From an uncultured Methanosarcinales archaeon (GTDB lineage: Archaea > Nanobdellota > Nanobdellia > Woesearchaeales > UBA9642), in contig CAZQDS010000002.1 of NCBI GenBank assembly GCA_964591655.1, positions 1-36,966 on the forward strand: a stretch of DNA of 36,966 nt. Reading direction: 5' to 3'. Numbering within the stretch: the first letter of the stretch is position 1; each line of letters begins with the position of its first letter. This document shows, piece by piece, positions 1 through 18,396 of the stretch. A program made the position numbers and the translations under genes. A model generated the notes under the pieces. It did not search any database. It was given only the letters and a program-made list of their open reading frames with translations, and was not told the origin of the DNA.

Positions 1-3000
1 TGTCTCTCCTAAGGCAGACTCATTATTGAGATGCCATAATGCAACAAGACCGCTCATATTAGATTGCACTTCACCATTCCATCTTGTTTCTACAGGAGCG
101 AATGTCCCTGATTCATTAGTGTAAAGAGTCATATTGATGACGTAATACTCGTCTGTTGCGTTGCTCACAAATGACACTGGCGATGTCAGGGTGTTATTGC
201 CATTATTCGGATTCTGAAGTGTCACTGTCAATTGCTGTAATATCATGACTGTGGAACTATTCATAGGGGAGCTGTTAAGCTCATTGTCATTGGCTGTACA
301 CTCGAATGTCCAGTTCTGTCCTCTCACTACTGTTGCAGTCAGGTTATTTACTGAAACATCTTCCAATGAAGGAGAATATGATGTTGTCACGCCGCTGTTA
401 TTAAGTGCGCCATTAAGGAACCATCTATAATAATATCTTAATGTATCATCGCCATCAATAGAGTCTGCGCCTAAGCATTTTCCTTCCAATGTGTCATTAG
501 TATATGCTACGGACGGACTTATAGTGGATGTGCCCATATCTGGTGCAGAATTGAGGATAGTGAGATTATTGCTGCATCCGGTTGATTCCCCATCAGAATC
601 AGTCGCTGTAACGCATGCACTCCATATGTCTCCACGATTCGTATCTCCAGAGCTTAATGTCCTGTGAAGTGTTGAAGGTGTTGAATAATACGAATACATC
701 GCTGTCCAATAATATTTATTAGATACTATCAGGTCATCTATTGATGCATTGACGCCCGAAGCATTGCACCCCCCTAGTATGATGTCTCCTGTTATAGATG
801 TCAACGGGGCAAAACTCAAAGACGTGTCGAATGAACCATTTATGAATATATAGTATGCGTTGGTTCTTGATATGACTATGTGCTGCCATGTATTGTTCTG
901 GAAAGTTTTTGTACTGTTCTTTTCATATATCCCTGTGCCGTTTATGACTCTGAGCCTTACTTTGTTGTTTATGAGATGCAATTGATACATTGTGCTGTTG
1001 CCCTGGCTTATTATGCATCCATCATTTCCTGATGTGTTTATCCAAAATGCGAGGGTGAAATTATTTGTTATGTTTGTGTTTCCTGATATGTTTATATAAT
1101 TTGTAGTGTTGAACCTATATGCTCCTCCGACTTTTCCACCGACAAATACTGGCGATCCATATTTTGTACCATTATTTCCATAAGTAGTATAATCCTTGAC
1201 GTTAGAATAATTATAATTGAAAGGCATATTTATTGTCGCCACAGATGTCCCATTCTGCCGCCAATCAGTATTATTGTAAACTGCATCGCCATCTATATCT
1301 GCCTGATTAAAATAAACATTCAGGTTCTTGTTAGAATAATTTGTCCCGTCGGAAGAGTTTATAATTATGCTTGTGACATTCGGTAAAAACCCAGATATTG
1401 TCAATACAGAACTGTTCAATGGACTGCTCACATATATACTATCGTTTGCTGTGCATTCTAATGTCCAATTCTGTCCTTTTGCAAGAAGTGATGATGAGAT
1501 ATTCGCGACATTGACTTCCACTCCAGGCAGGATACTCACATTCCAATACATTGCCTCTTCATAGAATCTATTATTGACACTTGCATTGGCTATATTGTAC
1601 CATGCTGTTCCATTGTAACAATAAAGTGTTTGTGTTGGTCCTATGCCCACATACGCATATTGAAACATCAATGGCGCTTGATTCCAGCAAGCTTGCGGGA
1701 TAGAATAATTTGTTGCTGAACCCCAAGCTCTCACTTGCCAAAGGCTGCCATTATTTGCATTCAATGGTTTGGTGTAGTTGACATAAAAATATGATCCTAG
1801 AGCATTTGCAGAAGCAGTGGTGCTCCAGTTTCCATCATATGTGTATCCCACATTTGTCCAAACTCCGGCAGTGTAATATGTTCCAGTGCTCAATCCCCCG
1901 CATGTCGTCGAGACATTTGCACTTTCCTGATAACAGAAGCTATATCCTCCATATGTCCCCGAGGTGTTCAATGCTCCATTGAGGAACCATCTATAATTAT
2001 AGCTGTATGGATATGTGTCATTGTAAGCGCTGGAATTGCAGTATCCCAATAATGTATCATTCGCGTATGCCGTAGTCGGAGCAATCCTTGATGATAATAT
2101 CTGTGGTATGACAATGAATGTGAAATTGCTTGCGGACCATGCATAATTTGTCGCATTATCTACTGCAAGCACATTCCAAGTATAATTGCCTGGGGATAAA
2201 GAGCGGTTCTGGAATACCGGATAGAATTTTGTTCTAGTGTAATTGTATATCGTCAAGATTTCTGTGTCGCTCAGTGATCTGTTCCATACTGCCACCTCAT
2301 CTATGGATCCGTTGAAATCATTCCATCCTATATAAAAATCTTGATCGCCGTCCAGTAATGGTCCGGAGAGTGCGTATACGTCCGTATTATTTTTGACTCC
2401 ATTGACGAAGACATCTGCATGTGTTCCGTTGTATCTGCCGGCTATCATGGTCCATTGTCCTGCAGGAGTAGAATTTACAGAACCTGCCGCATAGTGTCCA
2501 CCATTGTTGGTCGAATTCACTACATGTAAATATACTGCATTATCTGTACCAATGGCCAGATAAAACATTTCGTAATTACCGCTGACGGTCCCGTCGTTTC
2601 TCTTACTGACAATTTCTCCGCCTTCACCACCTTGTATAGACTGATTGCGCAAAGGGTTGATCCATGCCATTACAGTCAAAGCAGTCCAGTTAGTGAAGTA
2701 ATCGCTATCAGGATAAGAGAAATCAGTATAAGTCGGTTGCTTATACTGCGCTCGACCAAATCTGCCTGAAGCATAAGGGGGACAAGTGCCACTGCATGAA
2801 AGATTGATGCCATTCCCGGACCAATCACGGATATAAGTATCATTCTCTCCGAATGCCGACTCATTGTTGAAATGATACAATGCACGCAAGCCACTATCGT
2901 TCCAAGCGACTTCGCCATTCCATCTAGTCTCCTTAGCAGCCCAACTTCCAGACTCGTTGGTGTATAATGTGGCGTTGACAATTCCATTGATGTCAGTTAT

Positions 3001-6000
3001 ATTGGAGATGAAGAATACTGGAGAGATGACGGAAGTATTGCTATTAGTAGGATTGACCAATGTGACATTCATCGTCAATGAGTAATTGCTGAAACTTGTG
3101 ACATTGAAAGTATAATTGTTTCCAGAATGATTTAGAAGCGCACATGTTGTGCAAGGGACTCCGTCTTTCAAGATTACAAGATTAGGATATGGCGCATTGT
3201 ATATTGTTAAGTTCGCAGAGCTATTTATTGATGAATGCAACCCAGAAGAATTGACATAAATCCATCCAGTGCCCATCTTTACATGAGAGTCGAAGTTTGC
3301 TCCTGAAACATTTATTCCATTTTTCCACCTAATTCTCCCGTATGAGGGCATATCTAACGTGACGTTCGTTATGTTATAGAGTTGTGTTGAATTGTATCCT
3401 GTGAAATTAGTTGTTGCGCCGCCAAAATTCGTGACATTCGGAGGAAGCGCAGTAGATGAAGGATTATATGTGACATATATGGAGAATTGAAAATTGTCTG
3501 TGGTTGGGGTGAATGGCCAAGGATCTTCTGGGGCAGTATAATCTTTCCTGCTTGAAGCGTCACCATATACATTCGCTGAATTTGAATCATAAAATATGCG
3601 TATTTCTGTAAATGAAAAACCATTATATATTGAGTTTCCTGAGCCCAACATGTTAAGGACATATGTCGATGCGCTGGATATGGATGCGCCACTCAAGGTT
3701 ATTCTGATCCATGCGGCACGTCTGTCTGTTCCTGTACTCTCTCCATAATCAACCTGTGAATGCTGATCAGTTCCTGGATCATCTTTAAGATTTACGAATC
3801 CTTTGACGTCATAATTCGCATCAGCCTCCATATACGCAAAGATGTCTATTAAAGTCCCATCGGCTCCCAAATAATCGTTCCCTGCCCTATAATCATTGAA
3901 TGCCCCCCATCCGTCATTATCGGCTAATTTTTGCGTGGAGCCTCCCGTAGTATTATACCCCAGTACTGAAGGGTCAATTCTTACAGGATAAACGGCATCA
4001 TCCAAGAATTCCTGCGGGACTGTCAATGTCATGACACCAGTACCGGAATCTATATGCATGTCTGCCCATACTGTGTCATTGTTCGCATCATAAACTAATG
4101 GTCTCAATATATGGAATGCTTTTCCAGTCTTGTATTCATTGTTCTTCTTTGATGAATGATATACTGCATAGCTTCCGACAATATTCTCTGGCCTGTGACG
4201 TCCTTCACAGTCTGTGGCATTACAGGAACTATTCCCCAGCTCAATATCCAGCGGCGGCTGATAATAGAATGAAAGATTCTCTGAATCGATGTTGAAATCG
4301 AAAGTGTTTGTTGACGGCAATGAATCAAGGACTATATCAAACTCCATCCCTCCTGCACCATTGACACCATCAATCCCGATTGTCCTTACATCAATCCTGT
4401 AATCATCATACGTAAGATTGATTGTATTATTGTATGTATTGTATGATTGCGGCATATTTTCATCAAGGTAAAAATTCAGTTTCGCTTCCCTATCCCATTT
4501 GCCCATGAAAAGTTTCGGTTCAAACCTGTCCTCTCCGCCAATTACTGCATCAAGCTTCTCATCATTGGAGAACTCTATGCTCACGATTTTCGGCATCCGT
4601 GCCACAGCTAATGGAATAATGTCGCTTCCGTTTATTGCATTGACAGGGATCTCATATCTTATCCTCTTCTTTACAGTCCCTAGATCCAATTCATCTGTAT
4701 ACTCATCGACATAGCTTACGATGCTTTTCCTTGTGGCGACAATGCTCAAGTTCTTGCCTTGCTTGCCTATGATTTTCGGCTCTTCTAATCCTCTCAAGAC
4801 AGCGTCTTCTTTGTATCTCACATAGTTTTCATCAGCAAAAATATAAGTCAAATTTGACGCATTATAATATACTATGAATGTGTTGCTTACACTGACTTCT
4901 TCACCATCAGTCACGTATATATAGAATTCTTGAGGGTATGGTGAGATTGGCGTTATTGTCAAGATGTTGTTGTCCAATGAATAGTCTACTTCTTCATTGC
5001 TCATGAAATCATAATCAAGGTCTTCCCCTTCCGGATCATAGAAATATTCAGACAGGTCGATATCTGCAGTCCCGTAAACATCTGATATATCTTTTATTTG
5101 TATTGGGGGTTGATTGATTATTTTTTGGGTGTAGATTATCTTCTCTAGGTAGAATTCTCCTTCTGTCACTTCAATTATTATAGAGAGATTGTATGGTGAA
5201 ATGTCGATGTCGCATGTGTCCATGCATCCGTCTGTTATCATGGAAAATGCTTCTGTGATATTCATTATTGTTTCTGTACCGTTCATGGTTTGATTGATGG
5301 TTTCATTGCTATCTGTCTCGTTAATATGCGTCGTGATGTTTATGTCTATAATCGTTTGATTGGTCTCATTTGCCGATTCATCGATTTTTGGTTCACGCTC
5401 AGTGATATTCGGTTCTGTGATCGTGTCGTTGATGCCTATGATTGTGTCATTTATGCCTATTGTCTCCCTTTCTTTCCTTACAGCATATCCTGTTATCAGG
5501 TTCATCATGTTCCCCGATCCTTTAGTTTCCACGGATTCGTATATGACATACTCTGTTGTTGTTCCTCCGATTTCGGATGTGAGTTTCATGACGAACTGCC
5601 CATCATATTTTCCGGCGATACGTATGCTTGTAAGGTTGTTCGTGTTATTGCTGTCCGCGATGATGTTGAAATAGTACTCTGTCGTGCCTACAGTGTAATT
5701 TTGGTCTACGGAGAATGTATATTCTGTGTTTTGTTCAAATGTCACAAATCCAGTCAGTGATGGCTCCATAAATGAATAGAATAACATCGAGAACATCATG
5801 ACTATCGCTGCCGACAAGATTACTTGATTCTTATACCTGAATTTCGGTTCCTTCTCCTTTATAGAATTTATCTTTTTATTCAATTCATAAATGTATGATT
5901 TTGCCGTGCTGCCTTTTGTTATGCTCTTGATCATGAAATCTGCTTCATTCCTTTTCATTTCTCCTTTTCTTACGCGCCTATCTAGTCCATCGACTAGCTT

Positions 6001-6042
6001 GATGAAGCCTTCCCTTTCCTGCATCAATTTTTGTTTATCCAT
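1..6042 (-). CDS. Giant membrane-anchored, N-glycosylation-sequon-rich surface protein (at least 2014 aa; C-terminus beyond the window). N-terminal cytoplasmic segment plus TM anchor, NxT/S-rich spacer, cadherin-like module, then repeated LamG (concanavalin-like) and Ig-like modules
   Basis: Not in the ORF track because it has no in-window stop. I hand-translated the minus frame whose codons end on coordinates divisible by 3. It is open in every stretch I translated (421-3060 and 3661-6042). Start is ATG at 6042 (MDKQKLMQEREGF...). TM segment is VILSAAIVMMFSMLFYSF. LamG_3-type strings include LYHFNNESAFGENDTYIRDWSGNG, TALTVMAWINP, GQWTMIAGRYNGTHADVFVNG and GSIDEVAVWNRSLSDTEI. YxYRWFLNG...GQNWT(F/L)ECTAND modules recur. 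All ORFs listed in 1-6000 are in other frames or on the other strand. Confidence 0.85.
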   Translation of the reverse strand, partial: MDKQKLMQEREGFIKLVDGLDRRVRKGEMKRNEADFMIKSITKGSTAKSYIYELNKKINSIKEKEPKFRYKNQVILSAAIVMMFSMLFYSFMEPSLTGFVTFEQNTEYTFSVDQNYTVGTTEYYFNIIADSNNTNNLTSIRIAGKYDGQFVMKLTSEIGGTTTEYVIYESVETKGSGNMMNLITGYAVRKERETIGINDTIIGINDTITEPNITEREPKIDESANETNQTIIDINITTHINETDSNETINQTMNGTETIMNITEAFSMITDGCMDTCDIDISPYNLSIIIEVTEGEFYLEKIIYTQKIINQPPIQIKDISDVYGTADIDLSEYFYDPEGEDLDYDFMSNEEVDYSLDNNILTITPISPYPQEFYIYVTDGEEVSVSNTFIVYYNASNLTYIFADENYVRYKEDAVLRGLEEPKIIGKQGKNLSIVATRKSIVSYVDEYTDELDLGTVKKRIRYEIPVNAINGSDIIPLAVARMPKIVSIEFSNDEKLDAVIGGEDRFEPKLFMGKWDREAKLNFYLDENMPQSYNTYNNTINLTYDDYRIDVRTIGIDGVNGAGGMEFDIVLDSLPSTNTFDFNIDSENLSFYYQPPLDIELGNSSCNATDCEGRHRPENIVGSYAVYHSSKKNNEYKTGKAFHILRPLVYDANNDTVWADMHIDSGTGVMTLTVPQEFLDDAVYPVRIDPSVLGYNTTGGSTQKLADNDGWGAFNDYRAGNDYLGADGTLIDIFAYMEADANYDVKGFVNLKDDPGTDQHSQVDYGESTGTDRRAAWIRITLSGASISSASTYVLNMLGSGNSIYNGFSFTEIRIFYDSNSANVYGDASSRKDYTAPEDPWPFTPTTDNFQFSIYVTYNPSSTALPPNVTNFGGATTNFTGYNSTQLYNITNVTLDMPSYGRIRWKNGINVSGANFDSHVKMGTGWIYVNSSGLHSSINSSANLTIYNAPYPNLVILKDGVPCTTCALLNHSGNNYTFNVTSFSNYSLTMNVTLVNPTNSNTSVISPVFFISNITDINGIVNATLYTNESGSWAAKETRWNGEVAWNDSGLRALYHFNNESAFGENDTYIRDWSGNGINLSCSGTCPPYASGRFGRAQYKQPTYTDFSYPDSDYFTNWTALTVMAWINPLRNQSIQGGEGGEIVSKRNDGTVSGNYEMFYLAIGTDNAVYLHVVNSTNNGGHYAAGSVNSTPAGQWTMIAGRYNGTHADVFVNGVKNNTDVYALSGPLLDGDQDFYIGWNDFNGSIDEVAVWNRSLSDTEILTIYNYTRTKFYPVFQNRSLSPGNYTWNVLAVDNATNYAWSASNFTFIVIPQILSSRIAPTTAYANDTLLGYCNSSAYNDTYPYSYNYRWFLNGALNTSGTYGGYSFCYQESANVSTTCGGLSTGTYYTAGVWTNVGYTYDGNWSTTASANALGSYFYVNYTKPLNANNGSLWQVRAWGSATNYSIPQACWNQAPLMFQYAYVGIGPTQTLYCYNGTAWYNIANASVNNRFYEEAMYWNVSILPGVEVNVANISSSLLAKGQNWTLECTANDSIYVSSPLNSSVLTISGFLPNVTSIIINSSDGTNYSNKNLNVYFNQADIDGDAVYNNTDWRQNGTSVATINMPFNYNYSNVKDYTTYGNNGTKYGSPVFVGGKVGGAYRFNTTNYINISGNTNITNNFTLAFWINTSGNDGCIISQGNSTMYQLHLINNKVRLRVINGTGIYEKNSTKTFQNNTWQHIVISRTNAYYIFINGSFDTSLSFAPLTSITGDIILGGCNASGVNASIDDLIVSNKYYWTAMYSYYSTPSTLHRTLSSGDTNRGDIWSACVTATDSDGESTGCSNNLTILNSAPDMGTSTISPSVAYTNDTLEGKCLGADSIDGDDTLRYYYRWFLNGALNNSGVTTSYSPSLEDVSVNNLTATVVRGQNWTFECTANDNELNSSPMNSSTVMILQQLTVTLQNPNNGNNTLTSPVSFVSNATDEYYVINMTLYTNESGTFAPVETRWNGEVQSNMSGLVALWHLNNESALGET

Positions 6043-6472
6043 TCTTTTTCAATGCCCGATGATATATTGTCCAGATAGTCCTATCGTCGCGTTGGAGTAG
6101 GATCGCTATCTGATGGAGTGTAAGATCATGATTTTTCTTGAGGTAATAGACTGCCGTCTCCAATATGCTGGTATCTTTTGCGAAGAAAGACAACGGGATA
6201 TTGTACTGTGTATCCTTATATTCCAGTCTTTTCCCTTTCACATTGTTGTATGTCGTCCATATTGTCTTGTTGCTTCTCTTGAGTTTTTCAGAGATCTTCT
6301 GGATAGTCATCCCCCTGTTCTCTTTCAAGTGCTTGACTACGCTTTCAAGTGGCGCTAGCCCATTAAGAAATATCGTTATAGGTATCTTTTCCTGCTTTTC
6401 TGAGATTAATATATCTATCAGTTCCCTCTTTGAAAGGGAGTTCAAGAATTTTACATAAGGGTCTTGCTGCAT
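6035..6472 (-). CDS. Small tandem-HTH protein with two sigma70-region4/LuxR-like helix-turn-helix modules; paralog of 14488..15009
   Basis: Internal duplication: IPITIFLNGLAPLESVVKHLKENRGMTIQKISEKLKRSNKTIWTTYNNVKGK and IPLSFFAKDTSILETAVYYLKKNHDLTLHQIAILLQRDDRTIWTIYHRALKK. Both fit the pattern Ls.lE..v.yL.....t..qIa..L.r...Ti......a.kK. The stop codon (6035-6037) lies inside the start of the giant ORF, giving an 8-nt overlap. Confidence 0.8.
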   Translation of the reverse strand: MQQDPYVKFLNSLSKRELIDILISEKQEKIPITIFLNGLAPLESVVKHLKENRGMTIQKISEKLKRSNKTIWTTYNNVKGKRLEYKDTQYNIPLSFFAKDTSILETAVYYLKKNHDLTLHQIAILLQRDDRTIWTIYHRALKKNG

Positions 6473-6547
6473 TCTGAATGCTTGTGAGTTAAAATTCTTA
6501 ATTTGTAGGTATTTGTCTTTATAAATATTGTCTTTATATTTAAAATA

Positions 6548-6599
6548 TGTAAGTATAGAAACATATATTGTAAGTATATTTCCCTAATATGTAATTATT
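6548..6599. promoter_or_regulatory. Three TGTAAGTAT-like boxes at exact 21-bp spacing, upstream of the tandem-HTH gene 6035..6472
   Basis: tgtaagtata at 6548-6557, tgtaagtata at 6569-6578, and tgtaattatt at 6590-6599. The flanks also repeat (atatgtaagtata / tattgtaagtata). Confidence 0.55.
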
Positions 6600-6647
6600 C
6601 ATGACAAAAATGATAATATGATATAAAATGCTTATATGACAAGTAAG

Positions 6648-6683
6648 AATTCAAGCGTTCCCATTAATTCAAGCGTTTCCATT
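6648..6683. repeat. 18-nt perfect-tandem duplication (1 mismatch) covering the stop codon and last codons of the 6669..7076 gene
   Basis: aattcaagcgttcccatt (6648-6665) is followed directly by aattcaagcgtttccatt (6666-6683). Both copies read NGNA-stop on the minus strand. Confidence 0.8.
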
Positions 6684-7076
6684 TCTTGACTTATGATAGC
6701 AGTATTGTGCTAATAGATAGTATGTGTTTGAAGAAATGTCTCGATCCTTGAATATGCCCCATCTAGAAAGATAGTCCATAAGCTGAGATTTATATTCCAT
6801 CTTATCACTTTTCTCCATCATCTCTGGAGGAGGCTCGTCTGCTGCTGGAGAAAGATCATTTTTCATAAGGATAAGAATCAAATTTTCATTCACGTATACA
6901 TTTGATGCGACGGGAACAGTAAATTTTCGCAAGGACTCATGGGCGTTCACGAAATTGGCAAGTTCCTTATACGCAAAATTCCTTTTTTTCTCCACAGTCA
7001 TTCTGCTTATCTTTTCATGCAATTTATTGACATCATCCGCTAATTTACCCATGCTGAGAGAATATCTGCGCCACAT
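6669..7076 (-). CDS. Hypothetical protein (135 aa), no recognisable domain
   Basis: ORF track only. A TATA-like aattatataaaac lies about 45 nt upstream on the minus strand. No motif recognised. Confidence 0.5.
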   Translation of the reverse strand: MWRRYSLSMGKLADDVNKLHEKISRMTVEKKRNFAYKELANFVNAHESLRKFTVPVASNVYVNENLILILMKNDLSPAADEPPPEMMEKSDKMEYKSQLMDYLSRWGIFKDRDISSNTYYLLAQYCYHKSRNGNA

Positions 7077-7270: not shown

Positions 7271-7396
7271 GGCATTTGTGGTGTCATAAAAATCTGTAAA
7301 TTTTTGGGACGCAAAAAAGTCAAAGACTTTTTTTGCGTAATGGTAGCATGCAGGCTTGTGGAGCCTGAGGCCCGAGTTCGATTCCCGGCGGATGCC
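7271..7396 (+). tRNA. tRNA-His (anticodon GUG) with encoded G-1 and a ~54-nt insertion (putative non-canonical intron, about 7285-7338) in the D-arm/D-loop
   Basis: Anticodon arm is caggc/ttGTGga/gcctg (7351-7367) with U33 and G37. T-arm is ccgag/ttcgatt/cccgg (7372-7388) with one A-C mismatch. The 3' acceptor cggatgc plus C73 (7389-7396) pairs 8/8 (two G-U pairs) with ggcatttg at 7271-7278, giving the His-specific G-1:C73 pair. U8 is at 7279. D-stem gtgt (7281-7284) pairs with gcat (7346-7349). D-loop GG is at 7342-7343. CCA is not encoded. Confidence 0.6.
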
Positions 7397-7428: not shown

Positions 7429-8289
7429 ATGAAGACAAACAACAAAAAAATAGTGAATATTTGGAGGCTAAGGTGTTGCAGGATACTGGTTGTATTCACT
7501 TATCTTGTAACTAAAGATATAGTTGAAACGCTAGAAAGAAAAATAGGGTACAAATTGAGTGATTCTTTAAGAGAAGATATTAAGTTTTTAGAAAATGAGT
7601 TTCTATATAGGTTCTGGCAATATATCCCTGATAATATACGAAAAACGGCGATTGATGCTAATACAGTATCGAAAGAACTTGAAAATATTATACAATTAAC
7701 AGGCCATCCTATAATTAGTCTGGATAAAGTATATTTAACGAATGCAGATGAATATTTGGAAGTTACAAGATTGACTGATCCAAAAACCGGAAATATAACA
7801 ATATCTGAAAGACAAGGGTATAGGCCAATTGAAGAACAGATTAATTCCTTAAAAAAATATAAAAAAATTGTTCTAGCCGATGTTGGTGCCTTTGAGGGAG
7901 GAACACTATTAGATGTAAGCAACATGTTAGAAAGGAACGGATTAGAGATAGAAGAGATATATCTAGGATTTTCTAGCAACGAAGCAAACAAGAGAATAAA
8001 CAATAGTAGAAAATTGACTGTACTGAATTTATTCGATTTCTACGAATGGATTGAAATGCGAGATCTTTTCGGAATTGATGGCCGTGCAGTTAGTAATGAT
8101 TTAGGAATAAAAACATATATTCCCTATTCTGAAAATTTATCAGGCTGGGCAAGTATTCCTAAAGAAAATGAAAAAACAGTTTCAGAAATATGTAATCAAT
8201 ACTACCTCAAATTAATACAGAAATTGTCGAAGGGTGGATTTGATTTGAATAAGATAGGAAAAATAATGCGTTTGGATGGAGGTAAATAA
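7429..8289 (+). CDS. Uncharacterised protein with a phosphoribosyltransferase-like PRPP-loop motif in its C-terminal half
   Basis: 286-aa ORF. KKIVLADVGAFEGGTLLDV resembles the type-I PRTase PRPP-binding loop (hydrophobic strand, acidic residue, then xxxGGT). The N-terminal ~110 aa are unassigned. The true start may be downstream of 7429. The gene abuts the next gene. Confidence 0.55.
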   Translation: MKTNNKKIVNIWRLRCCRILVVFTYLVTKDIVETLERKIGYKLSDSLREDIKFLENEFLYRFWQYIPDNIRKTAIDANTVSKELENIIQLTGHPIISLDKVYLTNADEYLEVTRLTDPKTGNITISERQGYRPIEEQINSLKKYKKIVLADVGAFEGGTLLDVSNMLERNGLEIEEIYLGFSSNEANKRINNSRKLTVLNLFDFYEWIEMRDLFGIDGRAVSNDLGIKTYIPYSENLSGWASIPKENEKTVSEICNQYYLKLIQKLSKGGFDLNKIGKIMRLDGGK

Positions 8290-8290
8290 A

Positions 8291-8836
8291 ATGAGAAAAT
8301 TACAAATAGGTGTTATGGGGTCTGCAGAGGATTTGAAATATACAAAAAAACTTGAGGAGATGGCTGAGAAAATCGGCGAATTAATCGCGCAGTCAGGGAA
8401 CATTGTAGTTTATGGCGCAGAAAAAGATTATGATTCTTTATCTGCCGCCGCTGCTAGAGGAGCAAAACGTAGAGGAGGAATGATTGTAGGCGTAACATAC
8501 GGTAAAGATAAGGATATTTATGGAAAAGATTTTACGGACATAATAATATCCACTGGAATAGATCGTGGTGGAGGAAGAGAATTTGTTTTGGTTAATAGTT
8601 GTGATGCAATAATTGCTATAAGTGGCGGATCAGGAACTCTGACTGAGATTGCGATAGCATATCAATCTAATATACCTATAATATGCATTACTGGTGTCGG
8701 CGGTTGGAGCGAAAAATTAGCTGATACATTTATTGATGAACGGAAAAGGTTAAAATGTTTGGAAGCAAAAACTCCTGAAGAGGCAGTTAAGTTAATTATT
8801 AATGAAATTAAGTCCGTCAAATATATAAATGAATAA
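8291..8836 (+). CDS. LOG/SLOG-superfamily Rossmann protein (TIGR00725-like, lysine-decarboxylase-like family)
   Basis: IGVMGSA at the N-terminus, RGAKRRGGMIVGV, and the family signature SGGSGTLTEIAIAY (GGxGTxxE). GGAGG at 8278-8282 lies 8 nt before ATG 8291, which I prefer to the track start at 8276. ATG 8291 sits 1 nt after the upstream stop. Confidence 0.8.
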   Translation: MRKLQIGVMGSAEDLKYTKKLEEMAEKIGELIAQSGNIVVYGAEKDYDSLSAAAARGAKRRGGMIVGVTYGKDKDIYGKDFTDIIISTGIDRGGGREFVLVNSCDAIIAISGGSGTLTEIAIAYQSNIPIICITGVGGWSEKLADTFIDERKRLKCLEAKTPEEAVKLIINEIKSVKYINE

Positions 8837-10211: not shown

Positions 10212-13200
10212 TCATTTATTTGCGAGTATTATCCAGTTAGATGATGATTTGTAATATCTTGCCATTAATGGGGTTGATGGCACATCTAAGTATACATATA
10301 ATGTCACATTACGGTTTGCAGTATCATTATTCCTGCCTAATCCAGAGCTTGTTATATTGATGTATGTGTTATTGACCAGTGATTGTCCGAATGAACTATC
10401 TGTCACATTGATGACAAAGTTGCTCGTCGAGATCCTGTCAGTATTGTTTGTTAAGTCGACAGCAAATATGCTCATGTTTACAAATATGGAGTTTCCGGTA
10501 TTGTTGACTATTATCGGAGTCAGAGCGACATCTTGCTGTCCTATGGTCAGTGTGCCTGCATCCAATCCATTGGTGTTTATCTGTATCGCGGACAATTCAT
10601 TGTATGTGAATGTAGTGGATGAATTCTCGACATAATTGCCGTCATTGTCTCTTATCGATATGTTTATGCTCCATATTCCGAACGGATCATAATATCTCAT
10701 GGAAACATTGCAGCTCACATTCTGCGCAGTTTCATTTATTGCTGTACCAGAACATGCGCTGCTCTGGCGTGCTATTCCAGAATAATTGACTCTCACTATT
10801 GCCGAACTTATGTTGATTGTGGAATTTCCGTTAGGATCATTAACGGTGAAGTTGAATTGTACACTTTTATTGTTCCCTTCAATAGGGTCCTGTGCCGATA
10901 CTGGCAGGAGCTTCATAATCGGAGAGACATTCATTATGAATACTGTGCTGCTGTTCGCCCAGTCGCTCACATTTAAAGTATCATTTGCCTGGCAACTGAA
11001 TGTCCAATTTTGGCCTATGACTAATTGAGAGCTGGAGATGTTTGCGATGTTGAACTCTGTGCCTGCAGTGTAGTTTTGTGCTGTAGATCCAGAGACGTTA
11101 ATCGCACCATCCTTGTACCAGATATAATTGTAGAACACTTCATCATCATCTGATGCGTTGCAGTATCCTTGAAGATTTATAGACGTGTCTGACACTGTCG
11201 GGCTTATCCTTGCAGTGACGTTTGTAGGGTTTATGTATGTCGTGTTATACCATTTTATTGAATAGAAGCATGCATCAGTTGATGAAGTAGCAAACAGATA
11301 ATTATCTTTTACATACATGCTATAGAATCCGCCGTTTCCTGTGCATGTCCCTGCAAGACCGGTGACATTTAAAGTCGCGAAGAGTGTCGGACTTGCGGGA
11401 TTGGTGACATTGACTATTCTTATCGTAGCATTGTTCACTGTCGTCCCTACAAATGCAAACTTATTGCCATTGTCAGGGAGCTGGCCTATCGCGACTGAAA
11501 CAGCATTAGTGATTCCGGCCACAGATCCTGCTATAGTGATGTTTGTCCCAGAGTTTATTGTGCCAGTCAAGTTGAGTATCGTCAAATCTCCATCTGTCTG
11601 AGAAGGGACGTAAAGCAGTTTTGTGCTGTTCTCGAAATAGAAATATTGCAGTCCATCTACAGATGCTGGAGAGGTCGTATCAGTATAATTTGCAAGGCAA
11701 GTTATGTTCCCGTTTGCGCTTATATTGAATACGCTCACAGTGTCATCTGTCGTGGACGCCCCTACCAATATGGTCGTTCCAGGGATGGCGTATAATTTTC
11801 TCAACTCATCTGTTGAGCAAGGATTTGCCGTGGCATTCCTGAAATATAATCCGACAGGACGGATGAGCGGGTTAGTCACATTATAAACACTGAGAGTGTC
11901 ATCTACTGATGCAGAGATGTATGCGTACCTGCTCGAGCCGATATCTGCATATGCCACGTCATAGACTCCATCTATGGAATAATATCCTGCACTGTTGTTA
12001 GCTATTGCACCTGAATTGTTCATGAGCGTAGGCGTGGCTGGTGAAACGTTGTATATGCTGAATTCATCATCAGTGAGAGCTGGTGCATAGAATATCTTTC
12101 TTGTGTCATCAAGCGTCCCGAACCATATTCCGTCTACGGATCCTGGCACTGCCGAATTGTTTATGCTTCCTATTATAGATAATGATTCAGGGTTGTTTAT
12201 GTCTATTATAGTGAATGAATCATCAGTATTTGAAGATACTATCAAGTATCCTCTGCTGTCATATTGCATCCCTCTTGCTCCCTCGATGCTATGCAATGGT
12301 ATGCTGTCCTGATAATATGCGGCCATAGTGAAGTTTACAATATATATAGGTGTGGGGTCTATTATGTGGTCTAGTTCGACTGTACCATCAATTATCTTCA
12401 GGTCGAACGTATCGCTGCTTGTATTTAGTGATGTAAGGTATATCTTATGATATCTCTCTTCAGTCAAGTTGGTGAATTCTGCAATAGAGATATTCTGTCC
12501 TTCTTCATAAACGATTATTTTCGCCTGTCCTGATGTTTCTCCTGATGTTTCCCCAGATCCTGCTCTGGCGTATATCGTTATGTCATTCGCTGATGTGAGC
12601 GCCCTCTCGAAAGTGACTCTTATATAATGGTCTTGTGACACGTTGAACCATACATCATCCTTTTCCTTGACATATTCGTATATCGGTTCTAAGAACGTCC
12701 TGTTTTCATCCAGCAGATCAGCTTTTGTGATAAGTATTATTATGAATTTCTGCTCGCTCAGGTGCGGCGCAATCCATTCTATGCGGTCTATCAGCCCATT
12801 ATTGTCGGTATCGTATGATGTGAATGGTATCTCTTTCTCTACGAATCCACTTGTTTTTATTTTTTCCAATTCTTCTTTTGTAATATTCAAATCTGTGATG
12901 TTTTCAGTATTGTTTATTATCCATGTTAATTTTATCCATTTGTCACTTGATATTTCTGATGGTAAGTCCGCGTAAGATAAGACGCTCGTATAATGTGTAT
13001 CTGATGAAATCATTACTTCTTTTACGTTATCGCTTATGACTGTTTCTGTCGCTATTGGTGCTTCTGTATAATATTCTATCTCCACATCTTCAATAGTCTC
13101 ATTTACCTCTAGAGGGATGAATGATTCTAATGTATCTGTTGGTTTTTCTAATTCTTGTTCTGATGCTATTGTTATTGCCTTGTTATTATCTTGTTTTTTC

Positions 13201-14495
13201 TCCTTGCCTAAATTTTCTTTATTAATCGTCTTGTCTTCTTTTGATATTATCTCTTTTACAACCTCCTCTTTTGATGTTTTGTTTTCTCTTGTTTTCTTTG
13301 TTACGGTTATATTTTCTGCTTCTATTGGTAAACTTATGTTTAGTTCCAATTCCTGTTCAATTGATTTAATTGTCTTGACCCATTTTACGCGCTCATTTAT
13401 TCTTGCAGGATATTGTGTCGTTTCAATTGTTATATTTGAAGCGTTAACTGTATATGCTATCGAAGATATTGTGAATATATTTGATGTTATTGTATTCTCC
13501 CCATCTGTCGCGTATATGTATGCTTCAATGTTCTCTGAGATTGAATTATTTTTTATGCTTATTTGGAGTAAATCTTCAGTTATCGATATATCTAGTGTTT
13601 GTGTTTCTATAGCGCTCATATCATATGATGGTTTCTTTGTGCTGTTGAAGTATTCTGAAAGGTTGAGTGTTAATATGTTATTGGTTGCATCTAGGGTCAT
13701 GTTCGGTATTAATCCTGCTTGTATTATTGGTTCATACGCTATTTGATAGTATATGTTCTCTATATATACTGTCGCGTTTGATAATTCAATAATTAGTTTG
13801 TATGGAGGCGTGCCTTGCATTATGCAACTGTCTGTGCACTCGTTTGCGAATGATGTTGTCATCTCTGTGGTTATGTTTTCTGTTGTCGAATTGTCTTCTA
13901 TTATTTGTTCTGTTGTGTTTGTTTCTGTGGTTATGTTTTCTGTTGTTTGTTCTGTTATGTTCTCTTCTATTGTTGTCGTATTTGTTTCTATTGTTATGTT
14001 TTCTGTTGTTTGTTCTGTTATGTTCTCTTCTATTGTTGTCGTATTTGTTTCTATTGTTATGTTTTCTGTTGTGTTCTCTTCTGTCTCATCCATTACTTCA
14101 TTTTGTATGGTCTCGCCCGTGATTTCATCTGTTACTAGGCCCGTTATTAGATTATCTCCAATGTTTTCTGGAGTATTATCTGAATTTAACCTTGCAATTA
14201 TTATCCTAGTACCATCATATTCGAGCCAGATTATGGCCTCGCCTCTTCCTCTTAAGACTGCATCTATAGATAAGAATGTTATTTTCGAGTTTATATCTAA
14301 TATTTCTTCACCGGATTCATAATATGTTTTATTTAGAGTTAATGTGCTTGTTTCCTCGTATGTTGCAAAGCCTGTCATTCCGAGCATTTGCGGATTGAAT
14401 ACCCATATTGCCTCTAGTGATAATATTACTAATAAGACTGCTAATAGGACAAACCTGTTCTTCCTCTTTTCAGGGATGAAGTTTATCCTATTCAT
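10212..14495 (-). CDS. Giant membrane-anchored, sequon-rich surface protein (1427 aa). N-terminal anchor, 21-aa tandem NxT repeats, cadherin-like module, LVIVD-type beta-propeller, YxWYKDG...GQNWTFSCQAND module, and a C-terminal double Ig-like module
   Basis: N-terminus is KRKNRFVLLAVLLVILSLEAIWVF. TENITIETNTTTIEENITEQT occurs 2.5 times. About six blades have the form ..YAY(I/V).S..DD.(L/F)S(V/I)(Y/F)N(V/I)(T/S)NP, e.g. DDSFTIIDINNPESLSIIG, DDTLSVYNVTNPLIRPVG and NATIRIVNVTNPASPTLFA. The N-terminal ~550 aa are collinear with the 1..6042 protein (C.D.C...PY.L, LSEYF..., TDGE...N.F). Confidence 0.9.
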   Translation of the reverse strand: MNRINFIPEKRKNRFVLLAVLLVILSLEAIWVFNPQMLGMTGFATYEETSTLTLNKTYYESGEEILDINSKITFLSIDAVLRGRGEAIIWLEYDGTRIIIARLNSDNTPENIGDNLITGLVTDEITGETIQNEVMDETEENTTENITIETNTTTIEENITEQTTENITIETNTTTIEENITEQTTENITTETNTTEQIIEDNSTTENITTEMTTSFANECTDSCIMQGTPPYKLIIELSNATVYIENIYYQIAYEPIIQAGLIPNMTLDATNNILTLNLSEYFNSTKKPSYDMSAIETQTLDISITEDLLQISIKNNSISENIEAYIYATDGENTITSNIFTISSIAYTVNASNITIETTQYPARINERVKWVKTIKSIEQELELNISLPIEAENITVTKKTRENKTSKEEVVKEIISKEDKTINKENLGKEKKQDNNKAITIASEQELEKPTDTLESFIPLEVNETIEDVEIEYYTEAPIATETVISDNVKEVMISSDTHYTSVLSYADLPSEISSDKWIKLTWIINNTENITDLNITKEELEKIKTSGFVEKEIPFTSYDTDNNGLIDRIEWIAPHLSEQKFIIILITKADLLDENRTFLEPIYEYVKEKDDVWFNVSQDHYIRVTFERALTSANDITIYARAGSGETSGETSGQAKIIVYEEGQNISIAEFTNLTEERYHKIYLTSLNTSSDTFDLKIIDGTVELDHIIDPTPIYIVNFTMAAYYQDSIPLHSIEGARGMQYDSRGYLIVSSNTDDSFTIIDINNPESLSIIGSINNSAVPGSVDGIWFGTLDDTRKIFYAPALTDDEFSIYNVSPATPTLMNNSGAIANNSAGYYSIDGVYDVAYADIGSSRYAYISASVDDTLSVYNVTNPLIRPVGLYFRNATANPCSTDELRKLYAIPGTTILVGASTTDDTVSVFNISANGNITCLANYTDTTSPASVDGLQYFYFENSTKLLYVPSQTDGDLTILNLTGTINSGTNITIAGSVAGITNAVSVAIGQLPDNGNKFAFVGTTVNNATIRIVNVTNPASPTLFATLNVTGLAGTCTGNGGFYSMYVKDNYLFATSSTDACFYSIKWYNTTYINPTNVTARISPTVSDTSINLQGYCNASDDDEVFYNYIWYKDGAINVSGSTAQNYTAGTEFNIANISSSQLVIGQNWTFSCQANDTLNVSDWANSSTVFIMNVSPIMKLLPVSAQDPIEGNNKSVQFNFTVNDPNGNSTINISSAIVRVNYSGIARQSSACSGTAINETAQNVSCNVSMRYYDPFGIWSINISIRDNDGNYVENSSTTFTYNELSAIQINTNGLDAGTLTIGQQDVALTPIIVNNTGNSIFVNMSIFAVDLTNNTDRISTSNFVINVTDSSFGQSLVNNTYINITSSGLGRNNDTANRNVTLYVYLDVPSTPLMARYYKSSSNWIILANK
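13861..14090 (-). repeat. In-frame 63-nt (21-aa) tandem repeat encoding a sequon-saturated spacer
   Basis: Units lie at 13915-13977 and 13978-14040 and are near identical. Partial units lie at 13861-13888 and 14041-14075. Each unit encodes TENITIETNTTTIEENITEQT, which carries 4 N-x-T sequons. Confidence 0.85.
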
Positions 14496-15009
14496 GTTCC
14501 TCCTTCTTCGAATTCTTTTTTTCTAATCCGAGTTTCTTTTCTGCTCTCTTGCATACGGTCCAGATTGTCTTCTGGCTCTTGCCTAATATTCTAGAAATTT
14601 GGCTATAGTGCATTCCGCTATCTTTTAGAGAAGAACAAATTGTCTCTAGTATGCTCAGATTCTTGTCTTGATGTTTGTTGAATATTGAGAAGTCTATATA
14701 TATAGTGTCTTCGTTTATTACTAGTTTGCTAGAAGATTTTTTTTGTGCGACTGAATACGTTACTGCAAGTGTTTTAGGATCTCTTGATAATAATTTTCCT
14801 ATTTGTTTGTATGTTAATTCCTTGTTTTCACGCAAGTATTTTACTATTGCCTCAAGCGGGGATAATTTTTCGTTGTTTATTATTGAAATGGGAAGTCTTA
14901 AGTTGTCTTTTAGAATGCGTCCTAGTTCATTTTCTTTGAACCCATATTTATCAGAAAGTATCCTTATCGCTTCTTTTTCGCTTAAACCCATGTTTTTTTG
15001 TCTAGGCAT
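14488..15009 (-). CDS. Small tandem-HTH protein with two sigma70-region4/LuxR-like HTH modules; paralog of 6035..6472
   Basis: The two modules are LSPLEAIVKYLRENKELTYKQIGKLLSRDPKTLAVTYSVAQKK and LSILETICSSLKDSGMHYSQISRILGKSQKTIWTVCKRAEKK. The stop overlaps the giant ORF start by 8 nt (ATGAATAG). GGAGGA lies just upstream of that ATG. Confidence 0.85.
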   Translation of the reverse strand: MPRQKNMGLSEKEAIRILSDKYGFKENELGRILKDNLRLPISIINNEKLSPLEAIVKYLRENKELTYKQIGKLLSRDPKTLAVTYSVAQKKSSSKLVINEDTIYIDFSIFNKHQDKNLSILETICSSLKDSGMHYSQISRILGKSQKTIWTVCKRAEKKLGLEKKNSKKEEHE

Positions 15010-15027
15010 GTGGTCTGATATATACTA

Positions 15028-15058
15028 TGTAAGTAATAATATATATTATGTAAGAATC
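15028..15058. promoter_or_regulatory. Two TGTAAG boxes at 21-bp spacing, between the TATA box and the start codon of the tandem-HTH gene 14488..15009
   Basis: tgtaagtaat at 15028-15037 and tgtaagaatc at 15049-15058. Each is preceded by tatg or ctatg, as in the copy-1 region. Confidence 0.55.
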
Positions 15059-15060
15059 TA

Positions 15061-15070
15061 TTTATAAATG
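15061..15070 (-). promoter_or_regulatory. TATA box (TTTATAAATA on the minus strand) for the HTH/giant-protein operon
   Basis: tttataaatg on the plus strand, 52-61 nt upstream of ATG 15009. This is a consensus-like archaeal TATA. Confidence 0.5.
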
Positions 15071-15115
15071 TTTATCTCTTATGCTTAAAATCGAAATCTT
15101 TATATATTAGTATGT

Positions 15116-15145
15116 CAATATACAAATTAATATACCAATATACAA
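15116..15145 (+). promoter_or_regulatory. Direct repeat CAATATACAA x2 (20-nt spacing) between a TATA-like element (ctttatatatt, 15098-15108) and the start of 15165..16001
   Basis: caatatacaa occurs at 15116-15125 and 15136-15145. Confidence 0.4.
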
Positions 15146-15164
15146 GACAGCTTATTTCGAGGTC

Positions 15165-16001
15165 ATGAAAATGGAGAAGAAAATATTATTATCGATTGCG
15201 ATATTTTTGGCATTCTGCACAATCCTAACATTGCCATTCATCATTCCAGCATTTGCAGGAACATCAGCATACTTCAACGTGTCATTGACGATCTCAAATG
15301 CTGCCCCTGTAATAGTCTCAGTGGATGCAATCTCAGACACCCCAACAGAAGGGACAACAAAGGTCGTATCATTTTACTTCAATGCATCAGACACTAACGG
15401 GGTATCAGACATACCCGCATCAAATGCATTGGTGAAGATCAATAGGAGCGGTGTAGAATTAAGTTCAGGATCATCATGCGAAGTCATCGGTTCAACATCA
15501 ACAATGAACAGATACCAATGCAATATCACTATAAATTATTATAATCTCCCAGGATCATGGACAATAAATGCCTCAGTATTTGATGGCGCATCAGCATTAG
15601 CGACTAATGTCACACAAACATACACCAATGGCAATGTCTACGGCATATCATTGAAGACAAATTCATTGACATTTTCAGGTTCTCCAGGACAAAGTGATGT
15701 AAATGCATCGAACAATCCACAGACAGTCAACAATACCGGAAACAACGCAATAACTTCATTAAACGTCACTGCGTATAATCTGGCAAATGGCGGGACATTT
15801 ATCGGTGTAGGAAACTTTAGCGTGAACATAACTAGTGCAGCTACAGGCCAGACATTGATAAACAACACTCCGGTGACTGTGAGCGGAAGCTCTGTTGCAG
15901 TCCAGGGATCAAGAGACCTCAATATATTCTTGGATGTCCCGAACGGCATAACTAACGGTACTTATACGTCGACAAATTCATGGATAGTGACCATAAATTG
16001 A
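15165..16001 (+). CDS. Secreted double Ig-like protein, a free-standing paralog of the C-terminal ~250 aa of the 1427-aa giant protein
   Basis: Signal peptide is KKILLSIAIFLAFCTILTLPFIIPAFA/GT. It is collinear with the giant protein's C-terminus. Matching pairs are NASDTNGVSDI / NDPNGNSTINI, YQCNITINYYNLPGSWTINASVFDG / VSCNVSMRYYDPFGIWSINISIRDN, VNNTGNNAITSLNV / VNNTGNSIFVNMSI, NFSVNITSAATGQTLINNTPV / NFVINVTDSSFGQSLVNNTYI, and LDVP...NSWIVTIN / LDVP...SNWIILANK. Confidence 0.8.
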   Translation: MKMEKKILLSIAIFLAFCTILTLPFIIPAFAGTSAYFNVSLTISNAAPVIVSVDAISDTPTEGTTKVVSFYFNASDTNGVSDIPASNALVKINRSGVELSSGSSCEVIGSTSTMNRYQCNITINYYNLPGSWTINASVFDGASALATNVTQTYTNGNVYGISLKTNSLTFSGSPGQSDVNASNNPQTVNNTGNNAITSLNVTAYNLANGGTFIGVGNFSVNITSAATGQTLINNTPVTVSGSSVAVQGSRDLNIFLDVPNGITNGTYTSTNSWIVTIN

Positions 16002-16041
16002 TACCGAAAAGTTTTTTAATATACCTCTCTTCAATTGTCCT

Positions 16042-16836
16042 ATGAAGAGGTGGAATATACTTGCGCTTATAGTGTTAATATTATCTGTATTAATGTCCTC
16101 TTCTGTCTTTTCATTCGGTGTCGCAACGCCTTTCTTTCCTAATGATACGATACTCCTTGAGCCGGGACAGGTTTTTGAATACACCATAAAAGTCCAGAAT
16201 AACGATGATGCATCATTTGATATAAACTTGACATATGAATCTTCTGGTGATGTGGCATATCTTAATGCCACCGATTTCTTCATCCAGAAAAAAAGTTATG
16301 ATAACCCATTCACTTTCATAATAAAGGCTCCAGACGTGTCCGAAATCGGCAAAATATATACTCTAAGTTATGCAGTCAGGCCATTACTGAATAATTCTGG
16401 TCAGATCCCTATGGGTGTAGAGATAAGGAGGTCTGTAAATTTTATGATCGTTTCTGAAGGAGGCCAAGGCCATTTCATCGTGACACCGACATTTAAGGAC
16501 AGGTTTTTGACTGCCGCATTGACTGTAATCAATCGTACGTACCTATATGTGATTGCATTGCTTGTGTTTTCAGCAATAGTATATATAGGATTCAGGTTAT
16601 GGGGCGTATCACGTCAGATAAGCGATAAGGCAAATAATAGGGCGCCTTATACCATATCCGAAGCCAAATCAACACATGACATCCGTATGTTGATAGAGAT
16701 GATGCCTGAAGACCAATTCAATAACGAATTCATAAGGAAAAAATATTCAGAAAGATTCAAAAAGCTGAATGAAGACTTTTTAAGCAGGAAAGTCTTGACC
16801 ACAAACAAAAAAGAGATGTTAAAGATATTGAAATAA
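16042..16836 (+). CDS. Type-I membrane protein: signal peptide, CARDB/NEW3-like beta-sandwich ectodomain, C-terminal TM and a short cytoplasmic tail
   Basis: Signal peptide is NILALIVLILSVLMSSSVFS. The ectodomain has LLEPGQVFEYTIKVQNNDDASFDINL...IGKIYTLSYAV. The TM segment is YLYVIALLVFSAIVYIGFRLW. Confidence 0.75.
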   Translation: MKRWNILALIVLILSVLMSSSVFSFGVATPFFPNDTILLEPGQVFEYTIKVQNNDDASFDINLTYESSGDVAYLNATDFFIQKKSYDNPFTFIIKAPDVSEIGKIYTLSYAVRPLLNNSGQIPMGVEIRRSVNFMIVSEGGQGHFIVTPTFKDRFLTAALTVINRTYLYVIALLVFSAIVYIGFRLWGVSRQISDKANNRAPYTISEAKSTHDIRMLIEMMPEDQFNNEFIRKKYSERFKKLNEDFLSRKVLTTNKKEMLKILK

Positions 16837-16837
16837 G

Positions 16838-18313: not shown

Positions 18314-18327
18314 GTATTTTCGGGCAG

Positions 18328-18357
18328 ATATCATGCTATGATCTGTATGCATGATAT
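18328..18357 (+). other. Intergenic hairpin (9-bp stem, 12-nt loop) between the 491-aa and 376-aa genes
   Basis: atatcatgc (18328-18336) pairs with gcatgatat (18349-18357). ttt follows the stem. Confidence 0.35.
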
Positions 18358-18396
18358 TTCCATAAACTATTAAAAATGCATTGCTTTATTGCATTT

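Follow-up and report, generated by a model that had tools for sequence, protein, structure and literature searches.

Helically phased 17-bp boxes at the promoters of tandem-HTH cassettes in a DPANN archaeon: putative operators of the adjacent protein

Introduction

Two cassettes of similar organization lie in the DNA studied here, a stretch of 36,966 nt (contig CAZQDS010000002.1 of assembly GCA_964591655.1) that is referred to throughout as the window. Each consists of a gene for a small protein with two helix-turn-helix (HTH) domains and a following gene for a giant protein. Upstream of the first cassette, a sequence-only reading had noticed three short boxes in steps of 21 bp, which it took to be a cis-element on one face of the DNA and not chance AT-rich repetition. 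The questions raised by this locus are what the boxes are, which protein reads them, and what its binding would do to the cassette.

The window is chromosomal and belongs to a DPANN archaeon of the Woesearchaeota/Nanoarchaeia type, with housekeeping genes for HisRS, a class I tRNA synthetase, SufBD, and cysteine desulfurase; the names of homologs and related loci indicate the same lineage. Both cassette promoters were found in activated-sludge and riverine DNA runs only, with no RNA run matched.

Cassette genes and encoded proteins

Both cassettes are on the minus strand and comprise the following genes.

1-6042, minus strand: giant ORF of the HTH1 cassette, at least 2014 aa, leaving the window at its left end; 8-nt overlap with the HTH1 stop; N-terminal transmembrane segment
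6035-6472, minus strand: HTH1, 145 aa, two sigma-70-region-4-like HTH domains; putative box binder
10212-14495, minus strand: surface protein gene of the HTH2 cassette, 1427 aa; 8-nt overlap with the HTH2 stop
14488-15009, minus strand: HTH2, 173 aa, paralog of HTH1 (39% identity), two sigma-70-region-4-like HTH domains; domain-1 recognition helix divergent (KTLAVTY)

The giant proteins of the two cassettes are paralogous and membrane-anchored. In Pfam, HTH2 reaches the cut-off of PF08281 (26.7 bits against 25.7) and HTH1 is slightly under it (25.5 bits), both matches being single-domain and on the C-terminal HTH. The AF2 model of HTH1 (pLDDT 88, pTM 0.74) has a helical N-terminus, then two units, each made of a short strand and helices. 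Foldseek matched SigR region 4 (5fgm, probability 0.99, rmsd 1.8 over 45 residues) and also SigL region 4 (3hug), with a weak match to the bipartite domain of Tc3 (1u78, E = 0.23), and a profile search of the PDB returned sigma-H (3mzy, E = 0.0012). The PDB sequence and fold searches gave domain-level matches only, with no whole-protein relative and a best TM of 0.35. Based on the Pfam score of HTH2 and the region 4 fold, the domains of both proteins are predicted to belong to the sigma-70 region 4-like HTH superfamily (PF08281/PF04545).

No sigma region 2 or 3 was found in HTH1 or HTH2 with Pfam or NCBIfam, and no NCBIfam family reached its cut-off, the sigma models scoring 16-24 bits against cut-offs of 43-323. 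A bona fide sigma factor is ruled out by the lack of a region 2/3 match and by the host, a DPANN archaeon. Membership of AraC/XylS (MarA-like) was likewise rejected, as there is no HTH_AraC or HTH_18 match in Pfam at E <= 0.1; the resemblance is functional only. No sensor domain is evident in the tandem-HTH protein.

At 50% identity, the tandem-HTH family comprises 2,258 representatives. In 43 out of 77 loci, the ORF that follows is at least 480 aa long or is truncated at the end of the locus, and an N-terminal hydrophobic segment is present in 43 out of 77. Many family members are doubled, with two tandem-HTH units and four HTHs in ~320-360 aa (for example L017, 2404-3385). For some representatives, the family sequence is annotated as the C-terminus of an ORF of 1,300-5,900 aa, reflecting either fusion or gene-calling read-through.

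Boxes in the HTH1 promoter

The three boxes are where they had been reported: TGTAAGTAT starts at 6548 and at 6569, and TGTAATTAT at 6590, with successive offsets of exactly 21 bp. Each is the 5′ half of a 17-bp minus-strand element with the consensus TACTTAC-ATA-ATAAGTA, and in gene orientation the core reads TACTTACA. The reported direct repeat overlapping TATA-like elements is also present at its coordinates. The features of this promoter (6495-6597) are given below in the direction of the genes.

6581-6597, minus strand: upstream box A (the 6590 box), TAATTACATATTAGGGA, 12.4 bits in the matrix scan; TTACATATT invariant in four orthologous loci
6560-6576, minus strand: upstream box B (the 6569 box), TACTTACAATATATGTT, 15.0 bits in the matrix scan; TATACTTACA invariant in the orthologs
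6539-6555, minus strand: box C (the 6548 box), TACTTACATATTTTAAA, 6.2 bits; half-site with the 5′ half intact
6537-6544, minus strand: distal TATA-like TTTAAATA, inside the second copy of the TTGTCTTTATA repeat
6513-6538, no strand: direct repeat TTGTCTTTATA in two copies (6513-6523 and 6528-6538), bearing both TATA-like elements
6518-6525, minus strand: proximal TATA box TTTATAAA, predicted for the HTH1 cassette promoter; the proximal box begins 16 nt past its first T, fitting the family rule of +14 to +16
6495-6511, minus strand: promoter-proximal box TACCTACAAATTAAGAA, 17.3 bits, the top-scoring box of the window; conserved in L001, L005, and L006

Two points are added to the original list of three. 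The box at 6548 is only a half-site, its 3′ half being replaced by the distal TATA-like TTTAAATA, and the fourth and best box, at 6495-6511, had been missed. This promoter-proximal box has its core TGTAGGTAT at 6504 and lies between the TATA and the predicted transcription start. The distances between the boxes are 21, 21, and 44 bp; the last of these, from the 6548 box to the proximal box, runs across the TATA and is 2 bp out of phase.

The sequence-only reading had left the choice of TATA between two places. That at 6518-6525 is backed by cross-locus comparison; the alternative at ~6620-6629 has no comparative support, being neither conserved in orthologs nor followed by a box in the register of the family. 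With a minus-strand cassette and 6518-6525 predicted to be the TATA used, the three listed boxes would be upstream of the promoter and not in a leader. Two TATA-like elements are also present in the orthologs L001 and L005, and the TTGTCTTTATA direct repeat is retained only in the closest relative, L001.

Allowing one mismatch at most, the 9-mer occurs 18 times in the window versus 10.7 expected, a count reached in 0 of 100 shuffles, and six of the 18 matches are within the two short cassette promoter regions. When a 19-nt matrix derived from the family was scanned over the 37-kb window, eight of the nine hits of at least 8 bits were inside the two cassette intergenic regions. Neither of these regions has a match in Rfam. 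A scan of 6300-6800 for intrinsic terminators found none, and a bacterial promoter scan gave only uninformative sigma-70-like matches, which are inapplicable to an archaeon.

Other features adjoin this promoter. A tandem 18-nt repeat, AATTCAAGCGTTCCCATT in two copies (94% identical, 6648-6683), overlaps the stop of a 135-aa ORF (6669-7076, minus strand) and is single-copy in the close relative L001; the T5 run after it on the minus strand, at 6606-6610, is a possible archaeal terminator. Between the 135-aa ORF and HisRS is a two-gene module (7429-8836, plus strand) encoding a 286-aa protein of unknown function and a 186-aa SLOG cluster-4 protein (PF18306, E = 3e-33). The module is absent from the orthologous loci L001, L004, and L005, and looks like a recent insertion or loss. 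At 7335-7388 on the plus strand there is a marginal, partial Rfam tRNA match over model positions 10-63 (29.1 bits, gathering score 29), unconfirmed by ARAGORN, which may be a tRNA fragment or chance.

The HTH2 promoter and its divergent neighbour

The core and its 21-bp spacing had been said to recur at the paralogous cassette, and they do: TGTAAGTAA is at 15028 and TGTAAGAAT at 15049, both inside a 21-nt tandem repeat. This promoter (15010-15075) has three features.

15061-15068, minus strand: TATA box TTTATAAA, predicted for the HTH2 cassette; box 1 starts at +14; invariant in L206-L208
15040-15056, minus strand: HTH2 box 1, TTCTTACATAATATATA, 12.3 bits; directly after the TATA
15019-15035, minus strand: HTH2 box 2, TACTTACATAGTATATA, 14.6 bits; 21 bp beyond box 1

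The TATA is preceded on the minus-strand side by AAATAAACA, which is also invariant in L206-L208. Box 2 lies 10 nt ahead of the ATG, on the predicted transcription start or beyond it. Both boxes of this cassette are thus downstream of the TATA, with none upstream.

The divergent intergenic region of HTH2 has a second conserved block at 15098-15148 on the plus strand, with the TATA-like TTTATATATT followed by three copies of AATATAC (15117, 15129, and 15137) within an inverted repeat of 20 nt. The block hardly varies among the orthologous loci L206-L208 and probably serves the divergent secreted-protein operon at 15165-19506 as an operator of its own. This operon is headed by a 278-aa secreted protein (15165-16001, plus strand), which shares 33% identity with the last 240 aa of the 1427-aa giant protein (10212-14495, minus strand; E = 1e-30), and its order (~276 aa, ~264 aa, and ~500 aa with DUF5752) is conserved in orthologous loci. 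Two putative regulators are nearby, a membrane protein with a weak C-terminal winged-helix signal (18376-19506, plus strand; IclR/Crp-like, E ~0.04-0.09) and a TrmB family protein (21262-22035, minus strand; PF01978, E = 7e-13).

Conservation in orthologs and across the family

At the four loci with HTH1 orthologs (~80% identity), TTACATATT and TATACTTACAT are kept in the 21-bp register with diverged flanks, and a further box, ATACnTACAAATTA, is retained just after the TTTATAAA element. Gene order is kept at the four loci with HTH2 orthologs (54-74% identity). In three of these, L206-L208, the TATA and both boxes are almost unchanged, and in L209 the boxes are rearranged.

More distant relatives were sought with a narrow alignment of the family, using one genome per species, which gave 232 relatives, from which 80 loci were kept. 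For 79 non-redundant genes, from Woesearchaeota/Nanoarchaeia, k-mers were counted in the upstream 300 nt without a prior motif. The top 8-mer in this motif discovery was TACTTACA, present in 40 out of 79 loci versus the 1.3 that dinucleotide shuffles predict. The core has a strong orientation bias, with ~100 forward and 14 reverse occurrences. In the 17-bp consensus, the outer halves are inverted copies of each other, 10 bp apart from centre to centre. The upstream regions of family loci have otherwise diverged beyond alignment; the core and its helical phasing are conserved upstream of orthologous and distantly homologous cassettes, which had been proposed as a test of the element.

Boxes were called across the family with a 15-bit matrix. 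At least one box is present in 68, at least two in 62, and at least three in 46 of the 79 loci; no box was called in 11 of 79, some of which have doubtful start codons or are inside long ORFs. Several assemblies contribute two loci, the cassettes being multi-copy per genome. Box density is 9.3 per kb in the upstream 300 nt versus 0.064 per kb elsewhere in the loci. It had also been asked whether the motif might be as dense throughout other AT-rich intergenic DNA. In the upstream 600 nt there are 5.3 boxes per kb versus 0.14 per kb per strand in the other intergenic DNA of the same loci (GC 33%), where the boxes are therefore ~38-fold rarer than upstream of family genes.

The reverse test, in which the exact 17-mer TACTTACATAATAAGTA was sought in metagenome contigs, found an HTH gene downstream of only 11 out of 119 matches. 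By a rough estimate, most of the matches are probably due to chance because a 17-mer is short. The multi-box clusters among these contigs nearly all adjoin HTH genes, and the few others (L129, L172, L200, and L147) are unrelated repeats. This test says little about a wider regulon.

One locus, L061, has nine boxes at 1883-2277, five of which are an identical near-perfect palindrome, TTTACTTACATTGTAAGTA. They are ~39-72 bp apart and 181-571 nt upstream of the HTH gene, with none close to the start.

Spacing and helical phase

The 182 distances between adjacent boxes peak at 20-22, 30-32, 41-43, 52-55, 62-65, 71-74, and 84-85 bp, with 21 bp the commonest and smallest spacing. A Rayleigh test peaks at a period of 10.5 bp (R = 0.56, mean phase -1.6 degrees), with a p of ~1e-25 that is optimistic because the loci share ancestry. 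Box spacing thus follows a whole-helical-turn rule, and the boxes form helically phased arrays. The proposal that they are on the same DNA face is borne out across the family, adjacent distances being multiples of 10.5 bp.

Covariation between boxes and the adjacent protein

The proteins of 68 loci were aligned, the majority base was taken for each box position in each locus, and pairs of positions were ranked by mutual information. The five strongest protein-DNA pairs are all at the N-terminal ends of the two recognition helices and are split by half-site.

Domain 2, helix position 3 (T132 in the window), RDDR-T-IWT or RDER-N-IWT: base 5 of the 5′ half, TAC-T-TA or TAC-A-TA; T with T in 53 of 56, N with A in 9 of 12, z = 17.8
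Domain 1, N-cap and position 2 (S67 and K69 in the window), R-S-x-K or R-D/N-x-R: bases 15, 17, and 18 of the 3′ half, GGA/AGA + A/T, or AGTA; z = 15.5 to 8.5

In domain 1, S..K versus D/N..R pairs with GAA/GAT versus GTA at bases 15, 17, and 18. When the helix columns are left out of the clustering, these residue classes turn up in several backbone clusters, and the sister pair L021/L023 differs in both helix and half-site; the classes are partly clades, and the number of independent events is modest. HTH1 is of the S/K class, and its own boxes end in TAAGAA or TAGGGA. HTH2 and all of its orthologs have KTLAVTY in domain 1, with no Trp, and boxes without the conserved G, a pairing also seen in L070.

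A homodimer would be expected to give symmetric covariation of the half-sites, and none was found. An asymmetric single-chain reader is favoured over a homodimer because of this and because the orientation of the boxes is fixed. The adjacent protein is the putative binder because residues of its two recognition helices co-vary with different half-sites.

Box position relative to the TATA and proposed regulation

In 49 out of 79 loci and in both cassettes of the window, the C of a CTTACA core is 13-17 nt (mode 14-16) past the first T of TTTAWAW, the TATA and start being predicted from sequence throughout. The ATG is often 0-30 nt beyond this TATA-proximal box. The archaeal TATA is centred near -26/-27, so the proximal box would cover ~-18 to -1. 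In L004, an HTH1 ortholog (82% identity), the layout is TATA-box-box, with all boxes downstream of the TATA. As this differs from the HTH1 promoter of the window, promoter layout appears to turn over quickly while the post-TATA box is kept. In archaeal promoters, sites downstream of the TATA repress, and a box between the TATA and the expected start is, by analogy, in the position of a repressor site.

Taken together, the sequence comparisons make it probable that the boxes are operators of the adjacent tandem-HTH protein. That the net effect would be repression of its own operon is judged from box position only and is proposed with somewhat less confidence than the operator role itself. One chain is proposed to bind one 17-bp box, with the C-terminal HTH on TACTTAC and the N-terminal HTH on TAAGTA, or on TAAGAA or TAGGA as the 3′ half read by the class of HTH1. 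The bound monomer would span approximately two helical turns, so 21 bp would be the tightest head-to-tail packing, and gaps of whole turns would put all monomers on one DNA face, making cooperative binding possible. Occupancy of the post-TATA box (6495-6511 and 15040-15056) would block recruitment of RNA polymerase, with the upstream boxes at 6539-6597 helping to load or stabilize the complex. The protein would in this way repress its own operon, including the translationally coupled and co-transcribed giant surface-protein gene, by negative feedback.

It is unlikely, but conceivable, that the adjacent protein binds with a positive net effect, in which the upstream boxes recruit TBP/TFB in positive autoregulation or a bistable switch and the proximal box caps expression at high protein levels. 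Boxes are indeed mostly upstream of the TATA: among the 49 loci that have a TATA-proximal box, 43 have one to eight upstream boxes, the nearest abutting the BRE/TATA at offsets of -17 and -28, and three of the four HTH1 boxes are upstream. However, the most conserved positional feature is the box between TATA and start (49 out of 79 loci), where archaeal sites generally repress, and in HTH2, the HTH2 orthologs, and L004 the boxes are all downstream of the TATA.

The likelihood is small that the boxes are read by an unlinked factor, or that they are a special core-promoter element of surface-protein operons, with the HTH protein a passenger. The fixed distance of the proximal box from the TATA is what a core-promoter element would show, and binding by the HTH protein is predicted only. 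Against an unlinked factor or a core element, it is at the two recognition helices of the adjacent protein that covariation concentrates, each helix with its own half-site, and clusters of the motif are almost confined to the upstream regions of the family; multiple phased copies far upstream do not fit a core element.

A role as recombination or gene-conversion sites, shuffling the paralogous surface-protein cassettes, is very improbable. Although the cassettes are multi-copy per genome, the repeats are oriented, and promoter architecture turns over quickly between close relatives (L004 versus the window), no recombinase is linked to the cassettes, the orientation is constant with a fixed register to the TATA, and helical phasing together with covariation with an HTH regulator fits control of transcription.

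Chance repetition, which an AT-rich region with many other short repeats might suggest, is refuted by the shuffle enrichment (for the 8-mer, 40 out of 79 loci versus 1.3 expected), the conservation at ~40% protein identity, the strand bias, and the periodicity; the reading of the boxes as a shared cis-element is supported.

Under the operator reading, a simple recognition code is proposed, in which T or N at helix position 3 would read T or A at base 5, S..K versus D/N..R would read GAA versus GTA, and loss of the Trp would go with loss of the G. A wider extension is speculative and on balance doubtful: that the cassettes are a lineage-wide, paralog-insulated switch system in Woesearchaeota and Nanoarchaeia, each regulator reading its own box variant by such a code, and alternative giant surface adhesins being expressed variably or mutually exclusively for host attachment. 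Archaea would then, if this is true, have their own counterpart to surface-antigen switching.

DPANN archaea either have not been cultivated or are difficult to grow; what is described here is a candidate regulator-operator pair with predicted specificity-determining residues. It is tied to the giant surface proteins with their membrane anchors, the leading candidates for attaching these episymbionts to a host. The boxes also offer a way to recognize cassette promoters in metagenomes, and the family supplies naturally varied pairs of protein and site with which DNA reading by a two-HTH single chain can be studied.

Comparison with known systems

MarA, SoxS, and Rob are AraC-family monomers in which two HTH motifs bind an asymmetric marbox of ~20 bp; they are bacterial activators that contact RNA polymerase. 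The arrangement proposed here is similar in that one chain would place two HTHs on successive major grooves about one turn apart, on an asymmetric site whose orientation matters. The fold, however, is unrelated, as the tandem-HTH domains resemble sigma region 4, and MarA, SoxS, and Rob are not known to have phased arrays or a fixed post-TATA site.

Among archaeal repressors, MDR1, Phr, LrpA, TrmB/TrmBL1, and NrpR have operators between the TATA and the start, block polymerase recruitment, and are commonly autoregulated. They are dimeric proteins of winged-helix, Lrp, or TrmB type, with palindromic sites and ligand or metal sensing. The putative operators of the cassettes would likewise be immediately downstream of the TATA and over the start region. 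The cassettes differ in that two unlike HTHs are on a single chain, no sensor domain is evident, and there are up to nine boxes. Ss-LrpB of Saccharolobus solfataricus, a dimer of the Lrp family, binds three regularly spaced symmetric boxes in its own promoter, all upstream of the TATA, cooperatively and with autoregulation. Both systems have similar boxes arrayed in helical register within the control region of the regulator itself, and cooperative occupancy with autoregulation would be a further parallel; the tandem-HTH protein is of a different family.

At the domain level, sequence and fold are similar to sigma-70/ECF sigma region 4 and to the LuxR/GerE and Tfx-type HTHs. Unlike sigma factors, the tandem-HTH protein has no region 2 or 3 and is a fusion of two region 4-like units, and archaea use TBP/TFB and not sigma factors. 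The Tc3 transposase and the paired domain also have two small HTH units in one chain that contact adjacent DNA segments, as is proposed here, although the fold match is weak; those proteins are a transposase and developmental factors, and their sites are not phased promoter arrays.

A literature search returned no description of the tandem-HTH family or of the box motif, and a paper that it returned, on archaeal LuxR solos, has no bearing on them. The protein architecture, the motif, the phasing rule, the inferred recognition code, and the link to DPANN giant surface proteins appear to be undescribed, whereas the regulatory principle, autoregulation via an operator next to the TATA, is conventional.
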